From: a bacterium
GTDB taxonomy: Bacteria; Krumholzibacteriota; Krumholzibacteriia; G020349025
Direction: 5' to 3'
Assembly (NCBI GenBank): GCA_031362565.1
Contig: JANLSU010000003.1
Coordinates: forward strand, 1 to 64,000
Length of the DNA: 64,000 bases
Position 1 is the first letter of the stretch. The number at the start of each line of letters is the position of its first letter. Positions 56,567 to 61,904 of the stretch are shown here, in pieces. A program made the position numbers and the translations under genes. The notes under the pieces were generated by a model. It had not been told where the DNA came from. It was given only the letters and a program-made list of their open reading frames with translations, and did not search any database.

Positions 56567-58351
56567 TCAGGGGGAGGTGGCGCAACTCGCTTCCACGAGC
56601 TTCTGCAGGGTCGGCAACGTCACGGCGCCGTTCCGCAGCACCGTGTCATGAAAGGCCCGGATGTCGAAGCGCTCCCCCATCGAGGCCTTGCAGCGCTCGC
56701 GCAGGCGCAGAATTTCCAACTGCCCGAGCTTGTAAGCCAGCGCCTGTCCAGGCCAAGTGATGTAGCGATCGACCTCGTTGACGATGTTGTTCTCGGCCAG
56801 TGCGGTGTGCGCCAGCATGAAATCGATGGCCTGCTGGCGGCTCCAGCCCATCGCGTGCATGCCGGTGTCGACGACCAGCCGGCAAGCGCGCCAGGCATCG
56901 AAGCTCAACATGCCGATGCGATCCAAGTCGCTCGAATACAAACCCATCTCGTTCGCGAGCCGTTCGGAATAGAGTCCCCAGCCTTCGACGAACGCGGTGC
57001 ATCCCAAGTGCTTGCGAAACTCCGGTACGCCGGTCAGCTCTTGCGCGATGGCAATCTGCAAATGATGCCCCGGCACGGACTCGTGAAACGCCAGCACCTC
57101 GGCCTCGTACTTCGGCCGCGTCTCGGGCGCGTAGGTATTGATGTAGTAGCGCCCCGGGCGCGAGCCGTCGATCGCCGGCTGGCGGTAGTAGGCGATCGTC
57201 GAGTTCACTTCTTCGTGCGCTTCGATGCGCGTCACTTCACACGCGGTGCGCGGTTGAATGTTGAACCATTTCGGGACCGCCGCCTGAGCCCGCGCTAGCG
57301 TCGTTGCCGCCTTCGCCGCGACTTCATCGCGGCTGCTGAAGTGGAGCGCCGGGTCGGTGCGCAACCGCCGCAAGATCTCGGCGTGGTCGGTTGTGCCGAG
57401 CACTTTGGCGCCGAGTTCGGTCATTTCGCGATCGATGCGCTCGACTTCCTGCAGGCCGATCTTGTGAATGCGGTCGGGGGCGAGATCGAGCGAGGTTTGG
57501 ATCCGGGCGAGAGTGCGATACGCTTCGGCCCCACCGGGCAGATTGACGAGCCCTACTTTGTCCTGCGGGCGCGCCACGGGCAGGACCTCGGCGTGGAGGA
57601 ACTCGCGGTACCTCGCGAACGCCGGCCGCACGCCGGTATCGATCGCCGCCTGCAAGTCCTTGGCAAAGTTCTCGCGATCTGCCGGGCTCCATTCGGCGGG
57701 CAAGGTGTGCGCCGGTTCCATGAGCGCCCATTCGGATGTCGGTTGGGCCGCGAGCGCATCCAGTTCACTCACGACGCGTTCGACCTGCGATGCGGTCGCC
57801 ACACGCTTCTCGGCCATACCACGCCGCAAGTTCGCCATGAGATCGTCCACCCACGGTCCCATCGCCCGCCAGCGCTTGACGAGCGCGCGCGCCTCGGCCT
57901 TGGTCCGCAGCGGCTGTTGCGATGGGATGTTGAAAAACGCGACCTGCGGGCCATCGAGCGGATCGACGTTCCAGGCGACGAGGTCACACGCGAGCCGGTG
58001 GAGATCGTCTTCGATCGCCTGGTGCAGCATGTCACGATTGACGCGGTCGGCTTCCGACAACACTTCGGGCGCGATCAGGCCGACGCGGTTCTGCAGTGCT
58101 TCGAGCCGGAGGCGCTCTTTCTTGCGGCCCGCGGCGGTGATCTCGGAAAGCCGCTCGTCGAAGCGCCGGTCGCCGAGCGATGTCGCATCGACGGGATTCG
58201 CTTGCTGATGCGCGTTCCAATAGTCGGCGCAGACCGCTGTCAGCTGTCCGGCCGCGGTGGTCGCGATGCCGGCGGCAGCGGCGACGGCAGGACGGCCGGC
58301 GCCCCAACTCACGACGACGGCGATCGCTAGTGTCTTCGAAATCCAAGTCAT
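56567..58351 (-). CDS. DUF885 family protein (putative metallopeptidase)
   Basis: [55 protein letters not shown]. Confidence 0.93.
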
Positions 58352-59793
58352 GACACCTCTCTCTTGTGTCCGGACGTGGGCTCGACAGCCGGGCCGCCGA
58401 GGTCTCGCACCGCTTCGCCGTGCGGTCCACAATCCGGGTCCTGGACCTTGGCGGGCGCCGACTGGGTGGCCTGTTCGACTCGCACTTCGTAGCTCCGCCC
58501 ATCGGATACGAACGACGTGTTGTACTGCTTCGAGAGTTCTGGATGCTCCGGATCGCGCGGCCGGCCGAGTGCCGGCGCGTCATCCACCACGAAAACGTCG
58601 GCGCCCACGTCACGGGCCCGGCCGATGGATTGCGCCACGGCACCCGCGAGACCATCCGCCGGATCCCAGCTATAGGCCGTGTTCGGCACGAACGCGACGC
58701 GCGGACTCAGGGTCTGAATCCACCCCAAACTGGTCGCGTTCGACAACCCGTGGTGGTGCAGCTTCGCGAAATTGACTTCCAGTTCGGGCGCCGGGAACGC
58801 ATCGAGCATGCTCGCTTCGGCCGCGACTTCGGAGTCGCCGCCGATGACGAACCGCACGTCGCCGTAGGTGAATTGCAGGACGATCGACTCGTTGTTGATA
58901 TCCGTGCCGCCGATATCGGTTGTTGCCCTGTAGCCCGCCGGGGTGCCGGCATTCAAGACCCGGATGGTCACCAAGTCGTCCCAGCGCAGCTCGAAGACGT
59001 TCGAGGAGCTGTCGAACCGGTGCAGAACGACGCGTATCCGCCCCTGAGCCGCCAGCGTCCGCAACAATTCGTCATACGCGAAACTATTCTGCGACTGGCT
59101 ATTCTTCGGCCCGGAATCGAAGAACACGGCGCCGGGAAACGCGGCGGCGACCCCATCCGTGATCAATCCCGACGACCCGAGCTCTCCACCCAGGTGATCG
59201 ATATGGGTGTGGGTCGCGAGCATCGCGTACATCTGTGTGACACTATGGTCGCGCAGGTAGGTCTTCACCGACTGTTCGGCGAGGCGCGTTCCACCATCGA
59301 TGAGAATATGCCGCCCGCTCGACGGCATGGTGAGCAGATGGCTGTCGCCGAAACCGATGTGGATCATGGTCGAGATCAAGAGATTTGCGGTGGGGGCCGT
59401 CGTGGCGATAAAACTATCGACCGGCGAGTAGCCGGTGGGCGCGCCGCTCACTTGGTTCACGACCTGGTAATAGGTCTTCCGGCCTGGCGCGAGATCGAGC
59501 AACGCGACCGAATGGTCGCGCGTCGACGCCCGGTCGAGGCGCTGCGCCGCATCCGGGTACGCCATGTGGTCGAAGACCGGGTTCGAAAACCTGAACGCGT
59601 AACGCACACTGCCACGGGCCGCTTTGTCGGTCTGCCACAAGATACGATTGGCGTCGACATGGACGCCGCTGCTCACCGCCGGCGGCGGTCCAACCGGGGC
59701 CACCGTCTTGTCGGCGCACGCGCCGATGATGCCGGCGGCAACTGCGAGACCACACAGGACGACGCGCGTCCGCAGGGAAAATGCTGGTGACAT
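58348..59793 (-). CDS. Lipoprotein with FN3-like domain and ComEC/Rec2-type MBL hydrolase domain
   Basis: Lipobox IGAC; IGFGDS, IDGG, THTHIDH, NNESIV, GGD, HHG. Confidence 0.85.
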   Translation of the reverse strand: MSPAFSLRTRVVLCGLAVAAGIIGACADKTVAPVGPPPAVSSGVHVDANRILWQTDKAARGSVRYAFRFSNPVFDHMAYPDAAQRLDRASTRDHSVALLDLAPGRKTYYQVVNQVSGAPTGYSPVDSFIATTAPTANLLISTMIHIGFGDSHLLTMPSSGRHILIDGGTRLAEQSVKTYLRDHSVTQMYAMLATHTHIDHLGGELGSSGLITDGVAAAFPGAVFFDSGPKNSQSQNSFAYDELLRTLAAQGRIRVVLHRFDSSSNVFELRWDDLVTIRVLNAGTPAGYRATTDIGGTDINNESIVLQFTYGDVRFVIGGDSEVAAEASMLDAFPAPELEVNFAKLHHHGLSNATSLGWIQTLSPRVAFVPNTAYSWDPADGLAGAVAQSIGRARDVGADVFVVDDAPALGRPRDPEHPELSKQYNTSFVSDGRSYEVRVEQATQSAPAKVQDPDCGPHGEAVRDLGGPAVEPTSGHKREVS

Positions 59794-59954
59794 CGAAGCT
59801 CGGTCCCTTCACGGGAGGCCGCGTTCTCGGGGGGAGATTTCAGCGCGCCGTGCCGTGCCCGGCGCGCGCCAAGGAGTCTACTCCTCCGCGACGAACGAAT
59901 GCGACGCCCCTCGGGCGGCGGCGATGATTCAGGCCGTGGTCAGCCGTTCGGGCG

Positions 59955-60143
59955 TATACTTCACATGTAAACCTCGTGCGGTCTGGAGGCGCCGGGTCGA
60001 GTCCCCCGGCAACGAACGGCCGGACGAGTTCAGCCGGACCGGGCACGCCGGTGGAGAACCACCGCGCGGCACGGACGGCGCACGAGCCGGGGACCCCATC
60101 CACGGCAGACGAAGCGGGGCGGCGCAAGCCGCCTCGCTTTTTT
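59955..60143 (+). ncRNA. Candidate structured ncRNA or cis-regulatory leader (~175 nt)
   Basis: TATACT -10 at 59955; several stems; ends in an intrinsic terminator; no credible ORF. Confidence 0.6.
60114..60143 (+). terminator. Intrinsic terminator
   Basis: GCGGGGCGGC-GCAA-GCCGCCTCGC followed by T6. Confidence 0.88.
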
Positions 60144-60189
60144 GTTGGGAGCGCCGTAGTACACTGCGGCGAACCGTGGAGGCACCGCC

Positions 60190-60573
60190 GTGAAGGAACT
60201 CATCGTTGTCGGAGACCGAGTTCTCGTCGTGCCCGAAGAGGGCGAGGAGCGCACGCAGGTCGGCCTGTACTTGCCACAGACTGCGATCGACGCCCGGCAG
60301 GTGCAGGGCGGCCGCGTCACCGCACTCGGCCCCGGCATTCCCGTCTCGGCTCCGGACGCGAATGACGAAGAACCCTGGAAGCGGCAGCGGCCGCAGCCGC
60401 GCTATATGCCGATGCAGGTGCGCGTCGGCGATTACGCGATCTTCTTCCGGCGCGCCAGCGTCGACATCACGTTCGAGGGCAAACGTTACTTCGTGGTGCC
60501 GCACGATGCGATCCTGGTCGTTGTGCGCGACGACGGCGTCGAGCCGTTAGCGGCTGTCGTCTTGCCGAAGTGA
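60190..60573 (+). CDS. GroES-like co-chaperonin (orphan, long-loop type)
   Basis: GGAGG SD before GTG; VGDRVLV.P, GLYLP, G.V.ALGPG, VRVGD; DEEPWK insertion; no groEL adjacent. Confidence 0.88.
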   Translation: MKELIVVGDRVLVVPEEGEERTQVGLYLPQTAIDARQVQGGRVTALGPGIPVSAPDANDEEPWKRQRPQPRYMPMQVRVGDYAIFFRRASVDITFEGKRYFVVPHDAILVVVRDDGVEPLAAVVLPK

Positions 60574-61904
60574 ACGCCGATTCGACCGGCGGCGCCGGGC
60601 GCGTGGTGCGTTGGATCTGCATCGCGGTCATCGCACTCACCAGCCTCGAGTTCGTGGTCGCGACGACCGGCGTGTTGCTGCGCCAACCGGCCCCCGCGCA
60701 CACTGACTTTGCGTCCTACTACATGGCCGGAGTGTTGGCGCGCGAACACCGATCGCCGTACGACGCCGCGGCGCTCGTGGCGCGCTCCGAGGCACTGGGG
60801 CTCGGGCAGAGCACCTATCCGTTCGTGTATCCACCCCCCTTCGCGATCGCGATGCGGGCGCTCGCCGCATTGCCTTTCGAAACCGCGCGGCGAATCTGGA
60901 TCCTGCTCACTACGGTCGCATTGTTCGGCATGCTTGGCGCGACCTGGCGGCTCGGGCGAGCGTTGTCGGCCCGTCTCGAGATCACGAGTCCTCTCGCCGG
61001 CTGGCTCGTGATGGCGGCCTTCGCGCCGGCCGCGCTCAACTCCGCGAGCGTGCACAGCGACATTCGCGTCGGTTCCGTCGGAGTGCTATTCGGCGCCTGC
61101 ACGGCGATCATCGCCTGGCGTTCACTTGCCGGAGCGCGGCCGTCGCCGTGGGTCGGACTCGTCTTGGCACTCGCAGCGCTCGCCAAGACGACGCCCGTAG
61201 TTCTGATCGCGTGGGTGGCGTGGCGCGGTGCGCGCCGCACGGCGGCTTGGAGTGTCGCGTGGTTGGGGCTCGCGTTCGTGCCGGCGGTGTGGGTGTGGGG
61301 CCCGGGGATTATCGGCGATTGGTTGCAGCACGGCGTGCTTGCAAGGCTCGCGGTACCAAGCGGCTGGGCTCATAATCAGAGTTTGAATGCGGCCCTGTTG
61401 CGGCTCTGCGTGCCGGCGGCGCTCGATGGCGTGACGGTGCGCGCGCCGCTGTTGCAACAAGTCCTCGTGTGGGCATTGACGGCGGGCGTCGCAGTCTCGA
61501 CCTGGAGTTGCGTGCGCATTCGTTCACGCCCCGCAGCAATGTTACCGCTCGAGTGCAGCCTGATCGTCCTTGCCATCCTCATCGTGACCCCCATCACCTG
61601 GGTGCACACGATGGCCGCACTGTTGTTCGTGTGGCCGGTGCAGATGCTCGTTCTGGCGCGCGCCGCCGCGCAGCGCTGGAAATGGACGCCGCACGCCACT
61701 TGGGCTGCATGCGCCGGTTTTTTCCTGTCGTCGGCGCATTTGCCGGTGCTGTGGGGAACCGCACTGCATCACCGCCCGTGGGTCGCACTGACGACGCTCC
61801 CCTTGGCCGGCATGCTCATCTCCTTCGCAACGTGCGTTGTCCTCCTGCACCACGCTCCCGTGGTCGCAGCAGCAACCCCGGGCGCCATTCGTCAATCGGC
61901 GTAG
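60570..61904 (+). CDS. GT87/DUF2029-type membrane glycosyltransferase
   Basis: DFASYY, PFVYPPPFA, LAKTTP, HNQSL, PITWVH; GTGA overlap with the GroES-like gene. Confidence 0.85.
   Translation: MNADSTGGAGRVVRWICIAVIALTSLEFVVATTGVLLRQPAPAHTDFASYYMAGVLAREHRSPYDAAALVARSEALGLGQSTYPFVYPPPFAIAMRALAALPFETARRIWILLTTVALFGMLGATWRLGRALSARLEITSPLAGWLVMAAFAPAALNSASVHSDIRVGSVGVLFGACTAIIAWRSLAGARPSPWVGLVLALAALAKTTPVVLIAWVAWRGARRTAAWSVAWLGLAFVPAVWVWGPGIIGDWLQHGVLARLAVPSGWAHNQSLNAALLRLCVPAALDGVTVRAPLLQQVLVWALTAGVAVSTWSCVRIRSRPAAMLPLECSLIVLAILIVTPITWVHTMAALLFVWPVQMLVLARAAAQRWKWTPHATWAACAGFFLSSAHLPVLWGTALHHRPWVALTTLPLAGMLISFATCVVLLHHAPVVAAATPGAIRQSA

Follow-up and report, generated by a model that had tools for sequence, protein, structure and literature searches.

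A possible orphan small RNA gene ahead of a Cpn10-like/GT87 operon

The window considered here, that is, the whole stretch of 64,000 nucleotides that was analysed (C31:1-64000), belongs to a MAG of 5.4 Mb with 65% G+C. In a 396-nt intergenic region of this window (59794-60189), a -10-like hexamer and an intrinsic terminator enclose a G+C-rich stretch that can be folded into hairpins. The question raised by this locus is what kind of element it is: a leader that controls the genes downstream, an RNA gene of its own, or DNA of no consequence. The original prediction had left two options, an attenuator or riboswitch of the downstream operon and a stand-alone RNA similar to 6S or Ms1. The features involved are the following.

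58348-59793, minus strand: MBL-fold gene, divergent from the candidate RNA, with a DUF885 gene behind it
59875-59880, minus strand: TAGACT, likely -10 of the MBL-fold gene, inside the block GGAGTCTACTCC (59873-84)
59955-59960, plus strand: -10-like hexamer TATACT, putative promoter of the RNA, with no -35 recognised
59967-60143, plus strand: candidate non-coding RNA of about 177 nt, its 5' end placed from the -10 box and its 3' end from the terminator
59973-60028, plus strand: hairpin 1, with base CUCGU/ACGAG, top GCCGGG/CCCGGC and the 8-nt loop UCGAGUCC
59995-60156, no strand: extra segment of about 162 nt without counterpart in L064, the nearest syntenic relative; inferred boundaries, flanked by AGGCGCCG (59987-94) and AGCGCCG (60150-56)
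60033-60079, plus strand: hairpin 2, an interrupted stem with the cap CGGUGG-AGAA-CCACCG
60086-60106, plus strand: hairpin 3, small, with the C-rich loop ACCCC
60111-60143, plus strand: intrinsic terminator located by a terminator scan, with a 13-bp stem (9 G-C), GCAA loop and T6 at 60138-43
60111-60140, plus strand: terminator stem alone, 13 pairs
60160-60165, plus strand: TACACT, -10 box for the Cpn10-like/GT87 operon, past the terminator
60190-60573, plus strand: Cpn10-like gene (127 aa; Pfam Cpn10, 47 bits), the downstream neighbour, outside the RNA
60570-61904, plus strand: GT87 glycosyltransferase gene, which pairs with the Cpn10-like gene

When the sequence was read directly, all the motifs on which the original prediction was built were found at the positions it had given. 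The strands CTCGTGCG and CGCACGAG lie at 59973-80 and 60079-86, GTCTG and CGGAC at 59981-85 and 60072-76, GCCGGG and CCCGGC at 59991-96 and 60005-10, CGGTGG-AGAA-CCACCG at 60049-64, and the hexamers TATACT and TACACT at 59955-60 and 60160-65. The GNRA-capped terminator with its T6 is also present, with 13 pairs and a GCAA loop (60111-60143), and it has the G+C-rich stem, the short loop and the U-tract directly after it that characterize intrinsic terminators. Its distance to the start codon of the Cpn10-like gene, on the same strand, is 47 nt.

Concerning a coding function, the G+C content shows no contrast between codon positions in any frame of the candidate region (0.69-0.76), the values in the neighbouring real genes being 0.41-0.57 for GC2 and 0.79-0.82 for GC3, and the four ORFs that overlap the region have no Pfam matches. 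There is, accordingly, no coding signal, and a small protein was ruled out on these two grounds. A remnant of the 3' end of a gene was ruled out as well, because there is no codon-position GC pattern and no stop codon ahead of the terminator in the plus direction; in fact, none occurs in any plus-strand frame between 59971 and 60150. Where the 5' end of the RNA is predicted (59965-59970), an ATG is immediately followed by TAA, and no ribosome-binding site was seen ahead of this start-stop pair.

Regarding known RNA families, no riboswitch, SRP, RNase P or tmRNA consensus had been recognised in this stretch, and a comparison with Rfam had been proposed. Using the 4227 models of the Rfam set, no match at the gathering score was obtained in the whole window. 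A permissive scan (E<=10) of the 481 nt from 59780 to 60260 gave three sub-threshold matches only, all of them on the terminator hairpin: BjrC68 with 25.6 bits (gathering score 39), PrrB_RsmZ with 14.3 and STnc390 with 14.1. No Rfam family of any name matched the body at E<=10. BjrC68 (RF02353), an sRNA of Bradyrhizobiaceae and the best match (E 1.6e-4, 60094-60147), differs from the candidate in that the terminator hairpin alone aligns, 32 model positions being skipped and the body left uncovered; judged from the alignment, this match is generic terminator likeness. ARAGORN detected neither tRNA nor tmRNA in 59000-61000, and the genome carries its SRP RNA (77.1 bits) and tmRNA (177.5 bits) elsewhere.

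The possibility of a 6S/Ms1-like RNA that binds RNA polymerase is favoured by the size of the element, which at about 180 nt is similar to that of the 179-nt 6S RNA of the same genome. However, this canonical 6S RNA (C15:1885-2063, 71.4 bits) already occupies another place in the genome, and the 6S model (RF00013) matches neither the window at its gathering score of 46.4 bits nor 59780-60260 at E<=10. 6S RNAs are defined by a rod that results from pairing between the 5' and 3' ends and by a large central bubble, whereas the predicted fold of the candidate lacks both the 5'-3' closing stem and the bubble; the long-range rod that can be drawn is 6.5 kcal/mol costlier and still ends in the terminator. 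Moreover, the element is unconserved, whereas housekeeping 6S RNA is conserved. The length is alike, but the model match and the architecture differ, so the 6S/Ms1-like label is not supported and a function of this type is extremely unlikely.

The hexamer TATACT sits 12 nt ahead of the first helix. Hexamers of this kind (no more than one mismatch to TATAAT, with A2 and T6 required) number 1052 per strand in 5.4 Mb, which gives 0.019 expected per 100 nt, and because they are so rare the position of TATACT relative to the first helix is suggestive. The tRNA genes of this genome have clear promoters of the form TTGACA-17-TAnnnT, and that of tRNA-Phe has TATACT itself 17 nt after TTGACA. A scan for two-hexamer promoters in 59500-60700 gave 0 sites, and no -35 box was found for the candidate RNA. 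The hexamer is not conserved in L064, which has CTTACT aligned to it.

The second -10 proposed before the groES-like gene (TACACT, 60160) is there and corresponds to TACAAT in L064, within a conserved block ahead of the Cpn10-like gene. The g2 relatives L022-L024, L071 and L073 present a perfect TATAAT before this gene with no recognisable -35, at the same distance from it as TACACT in the window genome (G000) and TACAAT in L064. For the Cpn10-like operon, the lack of a -35 box may be the usual state of the promoter.

Terminator-like structures away from gene ends were also surveyed. In a crude census with heuristic gene calls, 104 hairpins (<= -22 kcal/mol) followed by T5 or more were counted genome-wide; only 29 of the 104 follow a predicted gene of the same orientation at 120 nt or less, and for 40 no gene of that orientation ends within 300 nt. 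Given these roughly 40 sites, orphan terminators are not rare in this genome. Other candidate sRNA ends are found, for example, at C56 52200 (minus strand, -34.2 kcal/mol), C97 53319 (minus strand, -33.5 kcal/mol) and C85 144791 (plus strand, -32.8 kcal/mol).

The fold of the whole unit (59962-60143) on the plus strand has an MFE of -99.2 kcal/mol and a z of -4.27, and none of 200 dinucleotide shuffles was as good; on the minus strand z is -1.72. Much of this signal is supplied by the terminator, which reaches -26.3 kcal/mol on its own. The body without terminator (59968-60108) shows a z of -2.4 on the plus strand and -0.75 on the minus strand, and 2.5% of 200 random 141-nt windows from the same genome reach z <= -2.38; the body fold is, therefore, only moderately unusual and not extreme. 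Both the MFE and the centroid folds consist of three local hairpins plus the terminator. Hairpin 2 (-30.2 kcal/mol, z -3.9) is the best-supported part of the body. Hairpin 1 has a similar energy (-30.1 kcal/mol, z -2.2) and was recovered in 985 of the 1000 Boltzmann samples; hairpin 3 (-8.7 kcal/mol, z -0.9) is indistinguishable from chance.

Two alternative folds had been proposed for this unit, and both can indeed be drawn: Fold 1 has -94.7 kcal/mol and the long-range pairs of Fold 2, when forced, -92.7 kcal/mol, versus -99.2 kcal/mol for the MFE. What fails is the switch between them. Of 1000 structures drawn by Boltzmann sampling, 985 show the 5' strand in a local pairing with 60024-28, 14 show it paired with 60079-86, and every one contains the terminator. 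Fold 2 had been proposed to sequester the left arm of the terminator, but the terminator still forms in that forced fold. When its right arm is blocked, the best fold has -77.0 kcal/mol, which is 22 kcal/mol worse than the MFE, and the left arm does not engage the upstream body, whether the right arm is blocked or still to be synthesised. Hence, neither the sampling nor the right-arm-blocked fold offers a credible antiterminator that competes with the terminator. In our reading, the alternative pairings stem from the many CCGG/GGCC words of this stretch.

A regulator of the downstream genes would be expected to accompany them in related genomes. Orthologues of the Cpn10-like gene are present in 22 of 41 genomes, the window genome included. 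In 13 of these orthologues the upstream 450 nt were read, and neither a terminator nor a similar sequence was observed. A single-sequence covariance model of 59968-60108 with the MFE structure (R1) gave nothing at E<=1 in those 13 loci or in 9 GTDB loci. Collections of metagenome and genome contigs were also queried with the neighbouring proteins as probes, and on the metagenome contigs the MBL-fold protein retrieved 11 loci, one of which is L064. Overall, the element is upstream of the Cpn10-like gene in 0 of 26 related loci, which comprise 13 from the genomes of relatives, 9 from GTDB and 4 from metagenomes, with L034 excluded since it has only about 90 nt upstream.

These data bear directly on the reading in which the Cpn10-like/GT87 operon is controlled through read-through of the terminator, with the element as its cis-acting leader (an attenuator, riboswitch or RNA thermometer). 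As in attenuators and riboswitch expression platforms, a terminator closely precedes a gene of the same orientation, here with 47 nt to the start codon, and alternative pairings of the 5' strand can be drawn within 4.5-6.5 kcal/mol of the MFE. However, those systems do not place a promoter between the terminator and the gene. Here the -10 of the downstream operon follows the terminator and is conserved in L064, so the unit does not depend on that operon. There is also no competing antiterminator, given the presence of the terminator in every sampled structure, its unengaged left arm and the 22 kcal/mol gap; nor is there a match to any riboswitch family or a conserved aptamer, and the element is missing from the orthologous leaders. 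The cis-leader reading fails on three tested features (the downstream -10, the 26 loci and the antiterminator) and is largely refuted, so that an attenuator or riboswitch, the first branch of the original prediction, is now very improbable. Its preference for a stand-alone RNA over a cis-regulator is in line with the same three features.

The search for homologues, another step proposed at the outset, was extended to the relatives of this genome and to the rest of the phylum, and no credible one was found in 40 relatives, 207 phylum genomes or 150 class genomes. The element is single-copy in its own genome (blastn, tblastx and R1). In the 40 relatives, blastn gave no full-length match, only matches of 17-56 nt, the two best of which break the hairpin. 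In the 207 other genomes of the phylum there were 0 full-length matches and six of 31-63 nt; four of these were inspected, and all fall inside open frames of 441-831 aa, on one strand or the other. R1 produced only marginal matches in 6 family genomes, three of them at E 0.19-0.86 (the two inspected overlap long ORFs and the third is L063), two equally marginal ones in 150 class genomes (E 0.026 and 0.051), neither of them credible, and nothing in the 33 related loci. Likewise, phage and plasmid collections contained no match to the element, and two exact patterns gave 0 occurrences in viral contigs.

The most informative comparison is that with L064, the metagenome contig that is the nearest syntenic relative. 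It shows the same DUF885, MBL, Cpn10-like and GT87 gene order, with protein identities of 80%, 78%, 91% and 81%, respectively. The intergenic region is 235 nt long in L064 vs 396 nt in the window. Both ends align, and the block GGAGTCTACTCC is identical, but about 161 nt with the body of the RNA and the terminator are missing from L064. The spacer of L064 has no terminator and folds no better than shuffles (z +0.88), and the element is also absent from the further syntenic metagenome loci L071, L073 and L074. The unit appears to be evolutionarily young, since the stretch of about 160 nt with its body and terminator has no counterpart in L064.

To the left of the segment, the 109 nt at 59887-59995 show a weak alignment with the 113-nt spacer of L064 (z 2.0), other placements on this spacer giving z values of 0.96 and -0.33. 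The pattern would fit an insertion in the window genome and, equally, a deletion between repeats in L064; the short state of the more distant g2 relatives mildly favours an insertion. Should the indel boundary be correctly placed at 59995, older flank and extra segment would each supply half of hairpin 1, which would then be fortuitous. A MITE-like segment was discarded because no terminal inverted repeats are seen by eye at its ends.

What, then, is this element? A plus-strand terminator at this place can only end a transcript born in the intergenic region, because the nearest upstream gene is divergent. The combination of this terminator, a -10 box and a strand-specific fold is most simply read as a short independent transcription unit. 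On this reading, which we hold tentatively and place somewhat short of an even chance, the element would be a self-contained non-coding transcription unit confined to one lineage, namely an orphan sRNA gene of about 177 nt. In that case, transcription would start a few bases past TATACT, at about 59966-59969, cross the three hairpins and end at the terminator (60111-60143), so that the RNA would be finished ahead of the promoter of the Cpn10-like gene. The likeliest function, if there is any, would be that of an ordinary terminator-stabilised trans-acting sRNA that base-pairs with its targets via unpaired C-rich stretches; its C-rich loops are presumably similar to those of RsaE/RoxS. As a side effect, the promoter of the Cpn10-like gene could be shielded from upstream transcription. 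Pairing of the RNA with the leaders of both neighbouring genes was no better than with shuffles (z -1.41 and +0.78, from crude unrestricted duplex energies).

In its length, within the range of about 100-200 nt, its lack of an ORF, its small number of hairpins and the Rho-independent terminator that closes its 3' end, the candidate is like terminator-ended trans-acting sRNAs; like them, too, it lies between genes and is phylogenetically restricted. Such sRNAs have promoters of their own, and for the candidate TATACT is a putative -10. It differs from them in that neither a -35 box nor a homologue was found. These two absences, together with a hairpin 3 at chance level and the fact that orphan terminators are not rare, speak against an sRNA. 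On the other hand, at the roughly 80% protein identity between the neighbouring genes of the window and L064, turnover of sRNA genes is common, as is established for enterobacteria.

The same facts can be read in a different way, in which the locus holds non-functional DNA: a segment of about 160 nt with a terminator and a GC-rich hairpin, inserted or left over from an older arrangement, whose remaining structure would be due to chance in a CCGG-rich sequence with 70% GC and which would be untranscribed or transcribed without consequence. This is the main rival and a real possibility, though one we are inclined to doubt. The element is single-copy and occurs neither in the nearest syntenic relative nor at any other of the related loci, and the segment is flanked by the short direct repeats AGGCGCCG and AGCGCCG, as expected for a microhomology-mediated insertion or a deletion between repeats. 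In addition, the z of -2.4 of the body is equalled by 2.5% of random windows, no -35 box was recognised and about 40 other orphan terminator-like sites exist. Inert DNA does not readily explain, however, why a rare -10-like hexamer lies at the right distance upstream of the structure, nor why the fold is strand-specific and has the same direction as the terminator. The segment is not the 3' end of a gene, given the lack of plus-strand stops and of a codon-position GC pattern, and it has no parent copy in the genome, phages, plasmids or viral contigs. A more novel reading is the birth of an sRNA gene within one lineage of Gemmatimonadales, by capture of a segment of about 160 nt beside a -10 box, or else the first member of a class of structured RNAs not yet sampled; we regard this as unlikely. 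Under such a scenario the segment would have brought a terminator and a stable hairpin to a -10 box that was fortuitous or newly evolved, and the sister lineage would still show the empty site.

A last source for part of the sequence would be a decayed tRNA-Leu gene fragment, for example an old duplicate of an integration site. The 13 nt of AAACCTCGTGCGG (59969-81) recur without mismatch in the variable-arm/T-stem part of tRNA-Leu(tag) (G000 C75:77520-77606, compared with 59969-60005 of the window) and match tRNA-Leu(cag) in 12 of 13 nt, and the T-loop-like GGTCGAGTCCC comes 13 nt further on, in the same order as in the tRNA. Nevertheless, a match of 13 nt or more to some tRNA is found in 3.7% of random 149-nt windows of the same genome, the acceptor/CCA end does not follow, and ARAGORN finds no tRNA here and none on contig C31. 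The identity is probably due to chance, and a tRNA-Leu fragment is a highly improbable origin. BLAST also matched the T-loop-like stretch to sequences of L008, L014 and L057-L059, but these sequences are not tRNAs.

With regard to its significance, the candidate sRNA, if transcribed, would be among the first described in Gemmatimonadota; in the literature on sRNAs or RNA chaperones of this group, no title or opening of an abstract was relevant. Together with the empty site of L064, it would also offer a dated example of the origin of an sRNA gene. As an unconserved singleton in an uncultured MAG, it has small practical value, and the useful outcome is a negative one: the element is in all likelihood neither a riboswitch for the Cpn10-like/GT87 operon nor a second 6S RNA.

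Finally, some minor features of the neighbourhood may be mentioned. The block GGAGTCTACTCC (59873-59884), which contains the likely -10 of the MBL-fold gene, is also a small imperfect palindrome. The Cpn10-like protein matches the Pfam Cpn10 model in two stretches, which is read as an internal insertion. The stop codon of its gene overlaps the start of the GT87 membrane glycosyltransferase gene, and this pair is kept in L064.
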